Of a stretch of 64,000 bases of DNA, positions 51,351 to 59,220 are shown piece by piece. The first letter of the stretch is position 1; every line of letters begins with the position of its first letter. This stretch comes from Elusimicrobiota bacterium. GTDB lineage: Bacteria > Elusimicrobiota > Elusimicrobia > F11. Below the pieces are notes generated by a model that was not told the origin of the DNA, ran no database searches, and saw nothing but the letters and a program-made list of their open reading frames with translations. The DNA lies in assembly GCA_044221725.1 (NCBI GenBank), contig JBGAON010000004.1:128001-192000 (forward strand). The letters run 5' to 3'. A program made the position numbers and the translations under genes.

Positions 51351-51631
51351 AAATCGAAGTGAAAAAGTTTGGCGAAATTCTTACGTCGCGACCGGCAGGT
51401 CACGAAGCGGGATTATCGATTAAGGCGTACTTCAAACCGAAGGCGGGCGAACGTCTCGAGCTTGATTTTCGTGGCGTGTTGGCGGTGGGTCCATCGTGGT
51501 TGGATGAAGTTCTCACTATTCTACGTGAAGAATACGGAAAAAACCGTGTGCGATGCTTACCTTCTGAAAATGCTTCCGTTATTGAATCTCTGAAAATTAT
51601 CAATAAGCAGTCCAAAAAAACAGCTAAGTAA
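51347..51631 (+). CDS. STAS-like DUF4325 protein
   Basis: FG.IL.SR..G, LDF.GV..VGPSWLDE; ATGA-coupled. Confidence 0.85.
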   Translation: MKIEVKKFGEILTSRPAGHEAGLSIKAYFKPKAGERLELDFRGVLAVGPSWLDEVLTILREEYGKNRVRCLPSENASVIESLKIINKQSKKTAK

Positions 51632-51679
51632 ATCTTTCGACGTTTCACGGCTCCGTTCGTAAATAGTGAAGAGGCATTT

Positions 51680-51892
51680 ATGAACCGAGTTCCCGTCCAT
51701 TCATCCGCCATCCGCAGTATGGGTTACGATAGGCAGCATCGTGTGCTTGAAATCCGATACGTGGGCGGTGTTCTGTATCGCTATTACGAGGTGCCGCCAA
51801 TTGTCAACGACGCGTTGCGCGCGGCGTCATCGAAAGGTCAGTTTGTGAATGGCGTTGTGAAACCGTTCTTTCGATTCGAGAAGGTTCCGTAG
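51680..51892 (+). CDS. KTSC domain protein
   Basis: V.SS.I.SMGYD....LEI.Y..G..Y.Y..VP......L..A.SKG.F.N. Confidence 0.92.
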   Translation: MNRVPVHSSAIRSMGYDRQHRVLEIRYVGGVLYRYYEVPPIVNDALRAASSKGQFVNGVVKPFFRFEKVP

Positions 51893-51899
51893 CGGAGAC

Positions 51900-52997
51900 T
51901 TAAGGTAAAAATTTGCTGGGTTTTTTTAATTTTGTGGGCAGATACTTTTCGATGACGTGATTCAAACCGTGCTTTGCGAACGCCTGTTGTTCGACGCGGA
52001 CGCCCATCGCGAGCATTTGCTCGATCGCGTTTTTCCATGGTTTGTGGAATTTAATGAAGGGGTCGTTTTTGAGCGCGTCTTTGGCGCGTTTGATGTCCAC
52101 TTCTTCGAGCGGGTGCGTAGCGTCTTTTAATTTGTAATCGATGATATCTTGTGGCGTGACGCCCAAGTACGTCGCTTGTGGCACACAGAAAAATTGATTT
52201 AAGTGTGCATTGTTGCCGGATCCTACTTTAAGCGTGCGATAAATGTTTGTGATGCCGTACGGATCGCCATCCACGAACGCATAGACCGGCAATTTTTTAT
52301 CGTCGGCCAGGCGGCGGATGAAACGGCGGCACGCACGCGTGGGCACGCCGCCCATCGAGATTAAAATGCAATTGGCTGTCGTGTAGTAGTTGTGTTTCAC
52401 AAGCCGCTGAAACATGCCAGCCGTTTCAATCGCGAGAATAAACTTCGCGCTCGTTTCAAACTTCAAGTCTTCGCACGCGGTTGGAATCGAATAAGAACCG
52501 GTGCCAAATTTTGTGCAGTCGATGCGGATTTCTTTTCCGGAATCGGGATCGGTATCGATCACAATGAGCTTGCCGGCCACGTCGCCGCCTTTCTCTTCGG
52601 GAATAAACCCCATTTTTTCGCGGTTCAATCGGAAGTGCGCTTCAATATCGTCCATGATCGTGTCGGACTCGGGCTGTTCGTGAAAGCGCGCCTCGCCCCA
52701 ATTTTTGGACACGTAGTACGCCTCTCTCTTTGTCGCCATGTCGTCTTTCTTAACGATCTCGTGTGATAGGGCCATCATGCGAATGGTTTGCGCAAACGTT
52801 TTAACCGTGTTGTACGTGAGCGTACGTTCTTTCACGCGGTCGCCGATTTCGAAATAGCCTTTTTTCTTGTCGTACGTCACGTTTTCGAGGCTGCGCAGCG
52901 GGAAATCCATGGAGGGCGCGTGTTTCTTAAGAACTTCGTTATAAATTTTATCGGCGGCTTCGCGGATCAGTTTGTCGGCGTTATTTTTCATGGTCAA
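51900..52997 (-). CDS. top6A: DNA topoisomerase VI subunit A (Spo11-like)
   Basis: TKREAYY catalytic Tyr, F..Q.ESD, IETAGMFQRL, GVPTRACRRF, DGDPYG toprim. Confidence 0.93.
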   Translation of the reverse strand: MTMKNNADKLIREAADKIYNEVLKKHAPSMDFPLRSLENVTYDKKKGYFEIGDRVKERTLTYNTVKTFAQTIRMMALSHEIVKKDDMATKREAYYVSKNWGEARFHEQPESDTIMDDIEAHFRLNREKMGFIPEEKGGDVAGKLIVIDTDPDSGKEIRIDCTKFGTGSYSIPTACEDLKFETSAKFILAIETAGMFQRLVKHNYYTTANCILISMGGVPTRACRRFIRRLADDKKLPVYAFVDGDPYGITNIYRTLKVGSGNNAHLNQFFCVPQATYLGVTPQDIIDYKLKDATHPLEEVDIKRAKDALKNDPFIKFHKPWKNAIEQMLAMGVRVEQQAFAKHGLNHVIEKYLPTKLKKPSKFLP

Positions 52998-54743
52998 TTA
53001 GTTCAGAGATGTTTTGTCCTTTTCAAGGATGTCGGTCAATAGCGTGAGTACGCGCTTCTCTTCTTTTTCTTTGAAGCCCAAAATTTCGCGCAAACCGATG
53101 CCGATGTGCGGCAAGTATGACTTGATGTAATCTTTTTTGCGTTTCGCTTCGGCTTCGCGGTAACCGCGGCGAAGATAAGCATCCAAGCGGCGTCCGCACT
53201 CTTGGAGTGCCAAGCGAATTTCCTTTGTGATCTCCGGATAGGACGCCACTGCTTCTTTTGATTCGGAGGTGAACGGAACCCACACGCTTGCCATGTGAAC
53301 AGCGATCAAAAGCGGCCCTGTCGGCAGTGCACCCTTCGATTGATCGACTCCATAATTCTTCCACGCGGTAGTAAGAACACTTTTTGCGATGGCACACGCC
53401 GACTGTTGATAGAGAAGCGGTACGCGATTGGCGAATCGCATCACCTCGGCCAATTCTTCTTTCGGAAGCTCACCGCCATAAGCGAGCGCCACTTCAATCT
53501 GAAAGGGATTGCCGCGGTACACCGACGGTGGTCGCGTTTGCGACGTGTAAAAATCGGCATTGATGTTTTTCTTGATGCCTTGCAACAAATTATTTTCGCC
53601 GATGGGGGACAAGCAATTCGTTGGCGGGTTCATGAGCTTCGTGGCACCGATTGCTTTATGCAACTTGTCCGCTTCGTTATGAGCGATGTCGCCCGGTTTC
53701 GCGTTCGGGTCGATGCCCGCGGCCTTAAGAATGCTGTTCGCCACATTGGTCGACACGCGCGCGAAGTCGCGCGCGAGCATGGTCTTTACCGAGCGTGCGG
53801 CCGTGCTTTTCAGCATCTTCATGAGGATGCCAAGCTCAACACCGTGCGGATGTGGTTTGATTTCTTTCGGTTGAATCGGAAGCGCACGGCTGGCTGGTTT
53901 GTAATGTTCTTTGGTTCCATCCGGTCCCTTGTAAATCAGTTCAATGTGCGGGTTCGCGAGCGCGGTTTGGCGAATGTAGTCTTCGACGGAATGGCGGCCT
54001 TTCTGAAATTTAGCTTCGAGCTCAATCGAAACCTTCGTTCCGTGGGGTCGGTCCCATTTCACGACGTCATCTTTAATAACAGTGGGCTGATTCTTCGCAG
54101 TGTCGATTTGAATTTCAAAATAGTGCGCGGGCTTCTTCGCCGAAATGCGCGAGGTGATGCGCGTGGGGGAACCGGTCGTGAGTTGACCGTACATGCCGGC
54201 CGCCGAGATGCCGATGCCCTGTTGACCGCGGCTTTGTTTCATCGAATGGAATTTCGATCCGTAAAGCAACTTTCCGAAGATTCGCGGGATTTGTTCTTTC
54301 ACAACACCCGGTCCGTTGTCGGCCACTGTCACGACGAAACGGTCGCCGCCTTCCAGTTGTTTGATCCCAACGAGAATTTCGGGAGAAATCTTCGCTTCTT
54401 CGCAAGCGTCCAAACTGTTGTCGACCGCTTCGCGAACCGTGGTGAGCAATGCTTTCTTCGCGTTGTCGAAACCGAGCAGATGCCGGTTCTTTAAGAAAAA
54501 TTCGCTAACCGAAATGTCGCGCTGCTTCGCGGCCATTTTGTCGGCTTCGGTTTTTCCTGCTTGCGGGGTCGCTTTGGGTTTTTGTTCCGTTTCCTTTTCC
54601 GTCATCCTGGCGTGCTTTAAGCCAGGATCCATTTTGGCTGTGGATGAACGTGGGCCCTGGATAGAGGCATTCCCGGGCGACGATTTCTTGCCGGCTTGCT
54701 TGCTCTTCGCAGCTGTCTTAATTGGTTTGGGTTTCTTCTTCAA
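52998..54743 (-). CDS. top6B: DNA topoisomerase VI subunit B
   Basis: ISVSEFF..N...LGF, EAVDNSLDACEE, DNGPG, QSRGQQGIG, RFANRVPLLY, VPFTSESKE. Confidence 0.95.
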   Translation of the reverse strand: MKKKPKPIKTAAKSKQAGKKSSPGNASIQGPRSSTAKMDPGLKHARMTEKETEQKPKATPQAGKTEADKMAAKQRDISVSEFFLKNRHLLGFDNAKKALLTTVREAVDNSLDACEEAKISPEILVGIKQLEGGDRFVVTVADNGPGVVKEQIPRIFGKLLYGSKFHSMKQSRGQQGIGISAAGMYGQLTTGSPTRITSRISAKKPAHYFEIQIDTAKNQPTVIKDDVVKWDRPHGTKVSIELEAKFQKGRHSVEDYIRQTALANPHIELIYKGPDGTKEHYKPASRALPIQPKEIKPHPHGVELGILMKMLKSTAARSVKTMLARDFARVSTNVANSILKAAGIDPNAKPGDIAHNEADKLHKAIGATKLMNPPTNCLSPIGENNLLQGIKKNINADFYTSQTRPPSVYRGNPFQIEVALAYGGELPKEELAEVMRFANRVPLLYQQSACAIAKSVLTTAWKNYGVDQSKGALPTGPLLIAVHMASVWVPFTSESKEAVASYPEITKEIRLALQECGRRLDAYLRRGYREAEAKRKKDYIKSYLPHIGIGLREILGFKEKEEKRVLTLLTDILEKDKTSLN

Positions 54744-54789
54744 TGCGGGGGATAATGCCGAATTTGTAGTTGGGCGTCAAAAAAACCCT

Positions 54790-54814
54790 GGAACCTCGAC
54801 AATAAATTCACGTA
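54790..54814 (+). promoter_or_regulatory. ECF-type promoter
   Basis: GGAAC-N16-CGTA. Confidence 0.6.
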
Positions 54815-54820
54815 TTATTT

Positions 54821-55033
54821 CTCAACAGGAGGTGATGCGTATGAAACATGACAGTATCGTATACCAGGTGGTCTCCGCCTAACAGCGAACGTCTCGGGTA
54901 TCTCACTTTGAGGATCATTCGCATTCTGAACCTCTTCAGGAGACGCGGCCGATAAATGTTGCACCGGCGTACCTTCGGCCGGACCCCGCTGAATTAAAAA
55001 AGCCCGCGCTGTTAAACCCAGCGCGGGCTTTTT
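54821..55033 (+). ncRNA. Candidate structured small RNA with 13-aa ORF (MKHDSIVYQVVSA, 54841-54882)
   Basis: Own promoter, AGGAGGTGA SD, nested stems after the stop, strong terminator. Confidence 0.55.
54996..55033. terminator. Bidirectional intrinsic terminator
   Basis: aaaaaagcccgcgctg-ttaaacc-cagcgcgggcttttt. Confidence 0.88.
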
Positions 55034-55051
55034 CATATAGGATTTATCGAT

Positions 55052-55309
55052 TTATTCACCGTGTACGATTAGGAAGAGTTGATACTGAATGTCTTCGAGC
55101 TCATTATCAACTTCGGTGCAATCGATACCATTTCTCAAACAACTTTCAAGCAGATCTTCGTAATACAATTCAAGCGCTTTTAGTCGGAGCACATCGGCAA
55201 GCGGGCCCACGGCGGGTGCCGGCCGTGGAACCGGATTGTCTGGAAGCACTTGAGTCCCGTCCATTCCCGCATAAACACCTTTTGGCATCGTGCATAAACC
55301 CACGATCAA
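55052..55309 (-). CDS. Small hypothetical protein; start uncertain
   Basis: Plausible helical acidic C-term; followed by terminator. Confidence 0.45.
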   Translation of the reverse strand: MIVGLCTMPKGVYAGMDGTQVLPDNPVPRPAPAVGPLADVLRLKALELYYEDLLESCLRNGIDCTEVDNELEDIQYQLFLIVHGE

Positions 55310-55422
55310 TGAAACTATTACGTAAAAAGTTATTAATCAACTTACTCGCTAACTAAAATGCAACGGGTCTGCCGTCGTGATTGTTTGGCCATGAAATACG
55401 ACGTGTTTTAAGGATGCCCACG

Positions 55423-57270
55423 TTAAGGTGGATTATTCCCAAGGGAAATTGGTTCGAAGTAGATTTGCGGGGCGGAGCGCGTCCACCAACTGCCGGTGGC
55501 GCGCTTTTCGGCGAGGGTTGAAAAGCGGTATTCGTATATGACGGCGCGCACGTAATGGGGCGGTTCTTTTGGGAAAGGGTTCGTGGCTAGCAGATTGAGC
55601 GCCGGTTCGGATCCCTGCATAATGCGCACGGCGAGATTCATGAGCCACGGGTTTTCTTGGTAGGTGCCGAGCGCCGCGAACCACATTTGCCAGTCGAGTC
55701 TTGGTTGGTGCGGTGCCACAAACGCCGGACGGTGTCCAAGGGAGCCGGGTTTGTATTTAAATTCGTACGGTAACCAGGTTTGCGCATCGTTGGATCCTTC
55801 GAGAACAATTTCGTTGCGCGTCGTTGTCATCACCGCGAAAAGACCATAACCATTAACGAAATTGCACCGGTTCATTTCCATCGCCCATCGTCCCACGGTT
55901 GCCGGGTAATGTTTTCCGGGGTTAAAGTGAAGGGGACAAATCAGAGAGTTGAGAACCAGCACGAACACGACGATGGGGACGAGCACAAAGGAGGGCCAAT
56001 TCCGAGCGGGAGGTTGGGGATCGCTCGCATCCGCCACCCATGATTTGGCGTCATCCGACCAAAACGAGTCGTCCAGCAACAGAACACACAGCGCCATCGT
56101 CAATAAATTAAAGAACGCGTAATTCCCGGTTAGCGCGATAAGAATTTGAAGACCAACTTCGGCGTAAAACGCCACGTAGCGGAATCGCCGGGGAAGGAAA
56201 ATAAAGAACGGAACAATGAGCTCGCACGCCAACACAAGGAGTGTCGAGAACTTTTGAAATACGACAGGAAGATGGTGCGCAAAATATCCGATCCACGTTG
56301 GAAGCGGTTGCGTTTGGTAGTGATAGGTGAGTGCGGTGAGGTCGCGCCACGCCGCGTCACCACGCTCGATCTTGAGCAAGCCCGACATGAAAAGAAGCTT
56401 GAATAAAAGGAGTTGCAACAAAAACACGGGCCATGCGTGGGGGGCATGCGCACGTTGCGAACGGATAGAAACGGACATCGGCGCGAGGAAAATGGCGAGA
56501 AATCCGGTTTCGAGCAACAGAAGGTCCCACTGAAAACTTAAGAAGGGTGTGCCGAGCGTGACGAAAGATAGATAAATCGCCCACGCGGTCGCGAGCGCGA
56601 TCGTCGAGAAAAAGCCGCTAATAATAAGGATGGACGCCGCTACGCCAACGCCGCACGCCACATGAAGAGCTGTGTCCGAAACCGAAAACCAAAATAATGT
56701 TGGCAAGCCGAAATAAACTTTCCCGAAACGCTCGGAGACCAGCTGAAGTTGCGCGGCAAAAGGCGTGATGCCCCGAGAGCCAAACAGACCATCCACTTGC
56801 ACCCAGAGCGACACAAACGCAGCGAGATAAATAAACCCGAGCGCGCGCAAAAAAATCCACCGCGCCATCAAATAGGTCGGTGGATTTATTTCGCCGCCCC
56901 ACGCGAGACGTGTGAGTTTTGAAAAAAACGGACGGTTGCGTGCCACACGCCTATAGAACCATTCGCAAACGTGTTTCATAAGAGGAACGCGCTCGTATAT
57001 CCACAGTGGCCAGCCAAACCGTTTGGCTGTTGCGAGCGCACGGAAAGCCGCTTCGGCGCCCGCGACGTGCGTCCCGTCGGGGAGGATCAGCTGAACAGCT
57101 TTTGTGAAGGCGTCGAGGGGGATCTCAGGAAATTTTTCGCCTTCTATTTGATACGGGCTATAAGTAACTGCGTCACCGGTCCGCCGGCGCCAACGCAAGA
57201 CCCAGTATCGGCAGAAATGGCAATCGCCATCAAATATCAGGAGAGGCTTGGCCGGTGGATTTTTTATCAC
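55423..57270 (-). CDS. Lipase maturation factor family protein with N-terminal DCC (DUF393) domain
   Basis: FDGDCHFC; FLR.LG.IYL.AF, FQWD.LLLE.GF, HYQTQPLP, PHQPRLDWQMWF. Confidence 0.92.
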   Translation of the reverse strand: MIKNPPAKPLLIFDGDCHFCRYWVLRWRRRTGDAVTYSPYQIEGEKFPEIPLDAFTKAVQLILPDGTHVAGAEAAFRALATAKRFGWPLWIYERVPLMKHVCEWFYRRVARNRPFFSKLTRLAWGGEINPPTYLMARWIFLRALGFIYLAAFVSLWVQVDGLFGSRGITPFAAQLQLVSERFGKVYFGLPTLFWFSVSDTALHVACGVGVAASILIISGFFSTIALATAWAIYLSFVTLGTPFLSFQWDLLLLETGFLAIFLAPMSVSIRSQRAHAPHAWPVFLLQLLLFKLLFMSGLLKIERGDAAWRDLTALTYHYQTQPLPTWIGYFAHHLPVVFQKFSTLLVLACELIVPFFIFLPRRFRYVAFYAEVGLQILIALTGNYAFFNLLTMALCVLLLDDSFWSDDAKSWVADASDPQPPARNWPSFVLVPIVVFVLVLNSLICPLHFNPGKHYPATVGRWAMEMNRCNFVNGYGLFAVMTTTRNEIVLEGSNDAQTWLPYEFKYKPGSLGHRPAFVAPHQPRLDWQMWFAALGTYQENPWLMNLAVRIMQGSEPALNLLATNPFPKEPPHYVRAVIYEYRFSTLAEKRATGSWWTRSAPQIYFEPISLGNNPP

Positions 57271-57292
57271 GGGCGGGATCGTGGCGCCCAGT

Positions 57293-58303
57293 TTAGAACT
57301 TCAGTTGAAACAGCGGTTTGCTCGGTTCGCGGCGAGCGAGCTCATCAACTCGGTATTGTGCCGGCACACGCTCCCAGTCGGAATACACCTGGCCGTTAAC
57401 CCAGTAGCGTTGGCCCGGAGCGTTCGGTTCGTCGCCGTCGTAAAAAATGGAGTATTCGTTCGACGGAGGCGCGGTGCCGATGTGGCGCGTGCGTGGAATC
57501 AGCTCCATTTTGCCGTCGCCATCAACATCAGCGCGAATCCAATCCATTTGCAACATTTGGTTGTACGTGCCATCGCTGAGCATTTGTTTCAGCTCAGCAT
57601 TGAAGTCTGTAAGAATTTTCGTCGCGTTCGGAACGTTCTTCCTCAGCGCAAAATAAAGCAGGCGTCGAACCAGTGGCGTCCGGCCGATTTCAAGCTTCGC
57701 TTTCGTTTCGCCGCCTTGGTTCTTGAGCAGATACTGAAGCAGCAGGTCGTCAATGAGAATGTAGTCGAGTTCACCCCGCATCATTTTGTCGAGATTCGTC
57801 TGTTGGTCGGCGCCCGCAACGAACTGCGTATCTTTCGCTTTTTTCATTTCTTCGCCGTACGAATACCCGGTCACAATGCCCACGCGTTTTCCTTTGAGTT
57901 CGGTAAGGCTTTTCGCGCGAACGTCGCTGCCGCGCTTTCCGACCAGCACCAGGCGGTTTTCCAACAAAGGCGCTGAATATTCCAGGTAGGTTTCGCGGTC
58001 CGTATCACGCCACAACGCGGGGCTTCCATCAAAATTTCCGTCTTTGATTTGTTGGGTGAGCGTTCCGTCGGTGACGATCGTGACAGTTTCAAAAACCCGA
58101 ATCCGCCGCAGGGCTTCGTTAACAAGGTCGATGACAATTCGCGGCTCTCCGGCCTTGCCGGTGAAGGGTGGCCACGGTGTCGAACCGAGCTTCAGTGTGG
58201 TGTTGGCCGCGAAGCTTTGAACACAAACAGCGATCGTCGCTGCGAAGCAAAATATTCGTCTCAAGAAACCTCCCGCATTGCCATAAAATTTCTCCTGCGC
58301 CAT
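57293..58303 (-). CDS. Family 3 substrate-binding protein with C-terminal extension
   Basis: WPPF, LKGKRVG...GYSY, L..M..DGTY; orphan gene. Confidence 0.82.
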   Translation of the reverse strand: MAQEKFYGNAGGFLRRIFCFAATIAVCVQSFAANTTLKLGSTPWPPFTGKAGEPRIVIDLVNEALRRIRVFETVTIVTDGTLTQQIKDGNFDGSPALWRDTDRETYLEYSAPLLENRLVLVGKRGSDVRAKSLTELKGKRVGIVTGYSYGEEMKKAKDTQFVAGADQQTNLDKMMRGELDYILIDDLLLQYLLKNQGGETKAKLEIGRTPLVRRLLYFALRKNVPNATKILTDFNAELKQMLSDGTYNQMLQMDWIRADVDGDGKMELIPRTRHIGTAPPSNEYSIFYDGDEPNAPGQRYWVNGQVYSDWERVPAQYRVDELARREPSKPLFQLKF

Positions 58304-58324
58304 TATATCAGCGGCGGCGCAAAC

Positions 58325-58365
58325 AAAAAAAAGGAGGCCGGCCCCTTGCGGGGGCTCGGCCTCCT
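58325..58365 (-). terminator. Intrinsic terminator after hsp20
   Basis: aggaggccggcccc-ttgc-ggggctcggcctcct with U-tract on minus strand. Confidence 0.85.
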
Positions 58366-58381
58366 CGTTTTGCAACGAGAC

Positions 58382-58861
58382 TTAGTTTTCTTTGACGTTA
58401 ATCGCGATTTGTTTTGGCTTCGCTTCTTCTTTTTTTGGAAGCGTTAACGTCAACACGCCGTTTTTGTACGAGGCGTCGACTTTCGTCGAATCCACGGTGG
58501 TCGGCAACGTGACCGCACGGTAGAAACTTCCGTACGACCGTTCGGTGCGCAGCACGCCATCTTCGTCGGATTTTTCCTCACGCTTCTTTTCGCCTTTGAT
58601 CACGAGCGTGTTGCCGTCGACCGAGACGTTCAGGTCTTTGCGGTCGATGCCCGGCACTTCGGTGGTGATCTTGAGGCCGTCTTTTGTATCAGCGATATCC
58701 ATTGCCGGCACAAGCGCGACACCGTCCGATCCCTCCGGAAGTTCTCCGTTCCATCGGCCCAACGAGAAATTAAAGAGCTTGTTCATTTCGTTCTGAAGCG
58801 CCTCCATTTCTCGGAAGGGAGCCCACGTATTTCGTTGCGATTTCCACGGTATGATGTTCAT
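58382..58861 (-). CDS. Hsp20/alpha-crystallin small heat-shock protein
   Basis: P.MDI, PGI, ERSYGSF.R.V.LP, A.YKNGVL.LTLPK. Confidence 0.95.
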   Translation of the reverse strand: MNIIPWKSQRNTWAPFREMEALQNEMNKLFNFSLGRWNGELPEGSDGVALVPAMDIADTKDGLKITTEVPGIDRKDLNVSVDGNTLVIKGEKKREEKSDEDGVLRTERSYGSFYRAVTLPTTVDSTKVDASYKNGVLTLTLPKKEEAKPKQIAINVKEN

Positions 58862-58923
58862 ACTCTTTTCCTCCTTTTTTGGCGCTCGCCTTTCGCGAGC
58901 GCTAATTTTTCAGCAAAAAAAAT

Positions 58924-59220
58924 CTACGACCGATGCCCCGCGCGCGTTTCTTGTTGAATTTCGAGCACGACGCGCAGATGCCCAATAGTAACCCTCCGTT
59001 TTTGCATGAGGTTCCAAACATGGTTGAGTCGATTCAAATCTTGTTTCGAATAAAGCCGATCGGCGCCACGCTTCCGAATGGGGCGCACGATTCCTTCGGT
59101 GTCCAGTTCTTTAACCACCCACAGCGGAATTTTAATCAGCCGACACACGACCCCGGTCGGGAACACCGGTTCATCCATTTCGATTTCTACATCATCCAAT
59201 GTCAGGCCTTTATTCCACAT
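58924..59220 (-). CDS. MerR-family regulator (HspR-like)
   Basis: DEPVF..GVV, EGIV.P.R....RLYS..DL; upstream of hsp20. Confidence 0.75.
   Translation of the reverse strand: MWNKGLTLDDVEIEMDEPVFPTGVVCRLIKIPLWVVKELDTEGIVRPIRKRGADRLYSKQDLNRLNHVWNLMQKRRVTIGHLRVVLEIQQETRAGHRS

Follow-up and report, generated by a model that had tools for sequence, protein, structure and literature searches.

The 64,000-nt stretch of DNA analysed here (the window; C1:128001–192000 of G000, a 2.82-Mb genome that is 94% complete) carries a genuine, rare and uncatalogued small RNA with a likely stress promoter. The predicted primary transcript of ~211 nt (54823–55033, + strand, with an inferred start) comprises a 10-nt Shine-Dalgarno sequence (SD), a 13-codon open reading frame (ORF), a folded 3′ domain and a terminator. 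The one relative has retained the RNA but not the tiny peptide, so that it is probably the RNA that counts, as judged from the comparison of the two sequences.

Genomic setting and transcription

The RNA gene lies between a divergent topoisomerase VI B gene (− strand, ending at 54743; the topoisomerase VI A and B genes span 51900–54743) and a convergent orphan ORF of 85 aa (55052–55309, − strand), which is outside the RNA and could share its terminator. The orphan ORF has no homologue in 11 family genomes or in the protein database. The terminator (54996–55033) is intrinsic and bidirectional, with the hairpin GCCCGCGCTG (55002–55011/55019–55028) preceded by A6 and followed by T5; a pattern scan missed it, probably because the A/T flanks extend the stem. 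As the original prediction had it, no gene follows on this strand: within the window, no long gene lies downstream of the RNA on the + strand.

Transcription of the element, which had been predicted from the DNA, is consistent with unstranded RNA contigs that cover it in two runs. Runs containing this DNA come mostly from bioreactor, wastewater and sludge samples, and seven RNA runs contained part of 54300–55500. Four of these (X7, X17, X18 and X19), picked by study before the positions were known, were aligned to 51500–59000, while X10, X15 and X20 were left out. The sole piece of at least 99% identity in these 7.5 kb was 54840–54988 in X18 and 54836–54989 in X19; these are contigs of depth 2 and 6.6 that carry no strand, end or level, may reflect DNA carry-over and perhaps derive from one campaign. 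Of random 150-nt pieces drawn from the 1.2-kb query, ~6% lie entirely within the RNA, and two out of three then gives P near 0.01 by hand estimate. Both contigs stop near 54989, which hints weakly at trimming of the 3′ end. X17 yielded 55068–55260 only, which is outside the RNA and within the orphan ORF; contigs of this kind cannot turn non-coverage into absence. X7 gave four pieces of at least 99% identity in the 7.5 kb, with depth over the RNA, and also a variant contig with 1-nt deletions at 54883 and 54926, both in variable segments, which probably represents a third homologue.

A homologue in an unrelated context

A metagenome search with a pattern made of the SD and the first four codons returned at least 120 loci, and among the matches listed one homologue was found, L146, the head of which was thus partly chosen by the pattern; further homologues may exist. 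L146 is 76% identical over 173 nt (E 3e-24), with 32/39 identities in the head, 11/25 in P1–P2, 42/56 in P3–P5, 27/36 in P6 and 14/15 at the 3′ end. The similarity begins at the SD and stops 5 nt past the CGCTG motif, directly after which an unrelated terminator follows; the SD, the AUG and the core helices are all kept. The neighbours of L146 are a divergent DoxX gene and a downstream, same-strand radical SAM/SPASM gene, and the only other nucleotide match between its 3 kb and this genome is a 22-nt word. Eight of 11 family genomes encode proteins 65–78% identical to the radical SAM enzyme, and G000 has none, which suggests that the L146 organism belongs to the same family and is not a close relative.

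The two copies thus lie in unrelated contexts with terminators of their own, which upholds the view that the element stands alone and is not an attenuator. In particular, the window holds no same-strand regulated operon, the L146 neighbour is unlinked to the RNA elsewhere (in none of 8 relatives does the RNA precede the radical SAM gene), and there are no conserved control codons, the Ile and Val codons being replaced in L146.

The distribution of the RNA is patchy, as it was not found in the other genomes searched. The best non-self blastn matches in 41 relatives were terminator hairpins or chance words (six loci inspected), with no homologue among them. None was found in 401 phylum genomes, ahead of topoVIB in 6 of 8 relatives, or among the 44 rows (30 loci inspected) that an SD and ATG pattern gave in 12 family genomes. 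Model R1 detected no homologue in 150 genomes, nor, in a search of 12 family genomes at E 10, in the 11 besides G000. When two patterns were run over 393 class genomes, none of the 392 others held a homologue, and two other matches were not homologous. A genome collection gave 0 matches in one search and 24 in another, none of them real; four patterns found no homologue in a viral collection, plasmids and phages gave no match, and no mobile gene adjoins either copy. The known extent of the RNA is two sequences and one variant known from a contig alone, in one family of uncultured bacteria.

The small ORF and predicted ribosome loading

The extended SD of the original prediction is confirmed. 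The 10 nt of AGGAGGTGAT (54827–54836) are complementary to this genome's 16S tail, with a predicted duplex energy of ~−20 kcal/mol; only 10 sites of at least 10 nt occur genome-wide, this one being the sole such site on contig C1, and the sequence is identical in L146. The predicted 13-aa ORF is likewise present (54841–54882, 13 aa and TAA, with the ATG at 54841). Its start is conserved; its length and most of its residues are not. The L146 ORF has 27 codons, and of the first 14 codons compared, seven are identical in all three bases, six change the residue, the stop is replaced and 0 are synonymous-only. Seven of 13 residues are therefore identical, and four of these seven codons were imposed by the search pattern, which left their wobble bases free. 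Since the ORF measures 13 codons in one copy and 27 in the other and shows no synonymous-only change, the peptide is not what is conserved, and the peptide-coding function first proposed finds no support, given the six non-synonymous changes and the moved stop. Selection appears to act on the RNA sequence and not on the peptide.

The alternative proposal, ribosome binding, is plausible from the layout of the RNA. In single-sequence minimum free energy (MFE) structures the SD is paired with the body in both RNAs, with differing partners. Internal anti-SD sites are not unusual relative to shuffled bodies (P 0.40 and 0.12, sum of three), and opening the region from the SD to 12 nt past the AUG costs 9.2 and 4.7 kcal/mol versus means of 11.0 and 8.1 with shuffled bodies, 79% and 97% of which cost as much or more to open at the head. 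For these reasons we read the 5′ head as open to ribosomes. A switch that sequesters the SD, which the MFE structures and a 7-bp pairing between the SD and the P5 loop kept in both RNAs had suggested, was rejected as not above shuffles. A type I toxin-antitoxin locus was also rejected: neither copy encodes a peptide of transmembrane length, anti-SD sites are not above chance and there is no antisense toxin gene here.

Several other small ORFs were noted along the way. An ORF of 9–10 aa that encodes MGPKSPCGC or a close variant, with synonymous changes among the copies, has a strong SD before it and a terminator-like hairpin after it; it occurs in G000 (C3 ~613508–613550, + strand, L273), directly after a peroxiredoxin-like gene (AhpC/TSA, judged by eye), and in 6 of 11 family genomes (L044, L047, L051, L057, L060 and L063). 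This peptide, conserved unlike the 13-aa ORF of the RNA, is a possible redox micro-peptide. In G000, two paralogous ORFs of 48 aa, each with a hydrophobic stretch at the C-terminus, lie behind AGGAGGTG (C2, − strand; C3:77439, + strand), and a similar 45-aa ORF is found in G002 (L067); they may encode small membrane proteins or peptides resembling type I toxins. The same-genus genome G002 also has a strong-SD micro-ORF of 6 aa (L061:1501), with no match to model R1.

Fold of the 3′ domain

The folded 3′ domain (54865–54991) is built on an outer helix that uses the invariant CGCTG at 54987–54991, the 5′ partner of which is 54883–54887 or 54865–54873 here. Inside it, arm P3 (54890–54945; 54890–54895/54940–54945) shows one C-G to U-A change and encloses hairpin P4 (54896–54920), which has three one-sided changes, and the weak hairpin P5 with the invariant CTCTTCAGGA (54932–54941). 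Arm P6 (54948–54979) has one A-U to G-C and two one-sided changes; its internal loop, UAA/ACCU, is conserved, and its apical loop varies. The multibranch fold of the original prediction stands in part: cgtctc/gagacg and tctc/gagg are kept in L146 and ctgaa/ttcag retains 3 of 5 pairs, whereas the ccgg/ccgg helix falls away, as the MFE structure and L146 use GGCCGA/TCGGCC instead, and cagcg at 54883–54887 is unaligned, the partner of this CGCTG in L146 being a CAGCG that lies 18 nt farther upstream.

The whole unit folds with a z-score of −4.35, terminator included, and the body alone with −2.24 (4 of 200 shuffles as good) or, for a second cut, −1.87. A 39-pair structure fitted to both RNAs holds at every pair, with two double and seven single pair-keeping changes, values that 133 of 500 shuffles also reach. 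In a fairer test, the structure was predicted from one sequence and scored on the other against random substitution. Here the core helices have fewer broken pairs than expected (3/30 versus 6.7, P 0.046; 2/24 versus 5.6, P 0.041), while the whole structure gives P 0.09 and 0.21 and pair-keeping changes are no more numerous than under the null. The support for structural conservation, which includes two compensatory changes, is thus modest.

A likely stress promoter

The promoter first proposed, GGAAC-N16-CGTA, is present (54790–54814, + strand; GGAAC at 54790–54794, CGTA at 54811–54814, 16-nt spacer) and is of the ECF type, a motif class that is enriched in this genome. [GC]AAC-N16-CGTA occurs at 33 intergenic sites, compared with 4–17 for spacers of 10–15 and 17–25; the exact GGAAC-N16-CGTA is neither depleted nor enriched genome-wide (19 versus 20.8), and an apparent depletion of GGAAC-N16/17-CGT[AT] was due to the CGTT form. 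We listed the ORFs behind 32 of the intergenic sites and one extra site, 33 in total, and found an ORF behind 29. Nine of the 33 have a start codon 8–9 nt after CGTA, that is, they are leaderless, and by this measure the inferred transcription start of the RNA falls at 54823–54824, 3–4 nt before the SD. Many of the 33 sites lie at C5:31000–69000 of G000, and many members of the regulon are leaderless. The topoVIB gene and the radical SAM gene of several relatives also appear leaderless, with a −10-like hexamer ~7–10 nt before the start (L036–L038, L210–L217).

From the ORFs behind the motif 20 were selected for Pfam, of which 18 matched, including Ku, LigD, BON, Fe/Mn SOD, two hemerythrins and DUF4142, and further a UDG-family protein, an alpha-amylase/CBM48 protein and OmpA. 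Two ECF sigma factor genes are themselves preceded by GAAC-N16-CGTA. We take this gene set (Ku, LigD, BON, SOD and others) to have the make-up of a general-stress regulon. The RNA carries [GC]AAC-N16-CGTA at the right distance from its predicted 5′ end for a member of this ECF general-stress regulon, and since ~12 of the 33 intergenic sites are expected by chance, its membership is likely and not certain. L146 lacks the ECF motif and has a CATAAT hexamer 8 nt before the SD, where the G000 copy has TATTAT. Stress induction is thus predicted from a stress-type promoter in this genome, and it is not conserved between the two copies. In G001, G004 and G025, matches resembling the promoter proved to be coding sequence.

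Known families and partner proteins

The original prediction could place the RNA in no known family, and Rfam 15 agrees, with 0 matches at the gathering threshold in the window; at E up to 10 there were only sub-threshold, mostly terminator-driven matches here, and L146 likewise stayed sub-threshold. A tmRNA piece is ruled out, as ARAGORN found none in the window and the genome's tmRNA is on C3. The RF00013 threshold for 6S RNA was not reached, and the fold is not a long rod with a central bubble; neither this genome nor any of 12 family genomes gave a 6S match, with a model of low sensitivity that recovered it in only 5 of 14 control genomes. A decoy of the CsrB/RsmZ type was rejected, there being no CsrA in the genome and only two GGA motifs common to both RNAs. 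SRP RNA and RNase P RNA were rejected as identities, their protein partners not being found and a HARP-type protein being present. In this genome, RNase P RNA, rnpA, SRP RNA and the Ffh M-domain were not found, and a PIN_5 (HARP-type) gene lies at C3:177577–178176; SRP may be truly missing, or its apparent lack may stem from the 94% completeness.

RNase E/G is present, while Hfq, CsrA and RNase J were not found in this 94% complete genome. With Hfq, CsrA, 6S and RNase J all missing from what was found, any sRNA here would work without the usual helpers, and with no RNase J a roadblock to a 5′ exonuclease does not apply. When five segments were scanned for targets among 2188 predicted start regions, purH ranked first for the CU-rich segment: both RNAs keep a 15-bp pairing across its SD. 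Relative to shuffled alignments this pairing is not significant (P 0.36 with 300 and 0.70 with 395). The literature covered, which comprised few subscription papers and left aside supplements as a possible place of motif lists from ncRNA screens, holds no description of such an RNA, and the searches found no regulatory RNA reported from the Elusimicrobiota phylum.

Discussion

We tentatively favour the possibility that the element is a stress sRNA in which the 5′ head loads ribosomes and the folded 3′ domain is the effector. A stress sigma factor would start the RNA just ahead (3–4 nt) of the 10-nt SD, and the 3′ domain would fold on itself, leaving the SD and AUG fairly open for efficient ribosome loading. 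The selected trait would be the act of translation and not its product. Bound ribosomes would shield the 5′ end, and a ribosome at the stop codon would, in both homologues, mask or unwind the outer helix together with the 5′ side of P3, thereby freeing the invariant CU-rich CUCUUCAGGA. Either this segment or the conserved P6 loop would act as effector, most probably through Hfq-independent pairing to SD regions in other mRNAs; this last step is the weakest, no target having passed a test.

The main rival, which we hold to be unlikely, is that an abundant stress RNA acts as a ribosome decoy, its 10-bp SD duplex and in-frame AUG holding 30S/70S initiation complexes so that translation is damped globally, while the compact 3′ domain acts as a stabiliser or as a roadblock 25 nt downstream of the AUG. 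Such a decoy would account for an SD that is among the strongest of the genome, at the very 5′ end and predicted to be open, for the conservation of the head at the nucleotide level, wobble positions included, for the stress promoter and for an RNA that was detectable where flanking mRNAs were not, and it has a precedent in SprF1, as described in PMC8938821; however, the invariant sequence deep in the body is left unexplained, and a patchy occurrence is odd for a global translation brake. Rather more doubtful is an mRNA mimic that parks ribosomes: under general stress, the 10-bp SD duplex and AUG of a stable RNA would capture ribosomes, and the conserved multibranch domain at the mRNA entry side would hold them in or just after initiation. 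If true, this would make the RNA a counterpart of protein hibernation factors. We consider it quite unlikely that the element encodes a functional micro-peptide (N-terminal MKHD..YQ), as an mRNA or as a classical dual-function RNA, with its structure serving as a 3′ UTR that stabilises it. The initiation region is optimal and the residue identities noted above (7/13) fit this idea, but 4/7 of them were imposed by the search pattern, no change is synonymous, the lengths differ (13 versus 27 aa), and conservation is as high in the 3′ domain as in the ORF.

A protein-binding RNA, either one that binds RNA polymerase in the manner of 6S or Ms1 or a decoy for a translational repressor of SD-like sequence, is improbable: the failure to find 6S in this genome or in 12/12 family genomes, the conserved P6 internal loop and an RNA that is stable and apparently abundant speak for it, yet the fold is multibranched and not a rod with a central bubble, close relatives lack the RNA, CsrA is missing, and the SD and AUG would have no explanation. 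We give as little credence to a cis-acting leader (attenuator or riboswitch-like) whose downstream gene was lost or changed, or to a mobile-element remnant. The radical SAM/SPASM gene on the same strand after the RNA in L146 and the leader-peptide-like anatomy, with three Val and one Ile in the last nine codons, would suit a leader, but that gene is absent from G000 and without the RNA upstream in 8/8 relatives, the terminators are unrelated and no same-strand gene follows here; a remnant is opposed by the lack of plasmid or phage matches and of a mobile gene next to either copy. Least likely is a functionless piece of intergenic DNA, recently transferred or drifting beside the terminator of the convergent ORF. 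Rarity, modest fold z-scores and the fact that RNA libraries can contain DNA would all be compatible with it, but conservation sets in sharply at the SD and breaks off sharply right ahead of the terminators, and independent promoters and terminators, pair-keeping changes and RNA contigs argue otherwise.

Dual-function RNAs such as SgrS/SgrT, Spot 42/SpfP, AzuCR and SR1, as covered in a review (PMC12612679), share with the stress sRNA favoured here a stand-alone RNA of ~200 nt, a short 5′ ORF, a conserved non-coding part, an intrinsic terminator and a regulated promoter. In contrast to them, the element has no sequence likeness, its peptide is not conserved, no Hfq was found in the genome and no target passed a test. 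A stand-alone sRNA with a short ORF behind an SD is what we observe; we do not class it as a dual-function RNA despite this layout, because the two sequences show no selection on the peptide. With SprF1 of Staphylococcus aureus, a ribosome-associated ncRNA (PMC8938821), the RNA shares a purine-rich 5′ end, stress-linked expression and possible competition at initiation, and by analogy it may work in a similar way. Unlike SprF1, an antisense antitoxin of a type I pair, it has a full SD, AUG and ORF and no antisense toxin gene, and its ribosome binding is a prediction. The rnTrpL/peTrpL system of Sinorhizobium meliloti (PMC7968998, 10.1101/606483) offers a ~14-codon ORF, a terminator-ended RNA and possible translation-dependent action in trans; it derives from the trpE(G) attenuator with its control codons, whereas here there is no controlled operon and there are no conserved control codons.

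A strong SD can also act as a stabiliser, termed STAB-SD. Like the B. subtilis hbs mRNA, for which PMC5737220 describes a strong SD near the 5′ end and protection of the RNA by initiating ribosomes, the RNA could be shielded by the ribosomes it loads; the hbs and STAB-SD cases rest on RNase J1 and RNase Y, and no RNase J was found here.

The reach of these findings is that of two sequences and one variant in one family of uncultured bacteria. Within it, a maximal initiation site is conserved and the peptide is not, which would offer a clean test of whether ribosome loading alone can be the function of a small ORF. Such loading might serve as a switch, a stabiliser or a decoy, and the RNA is short enough for cell-free translation.
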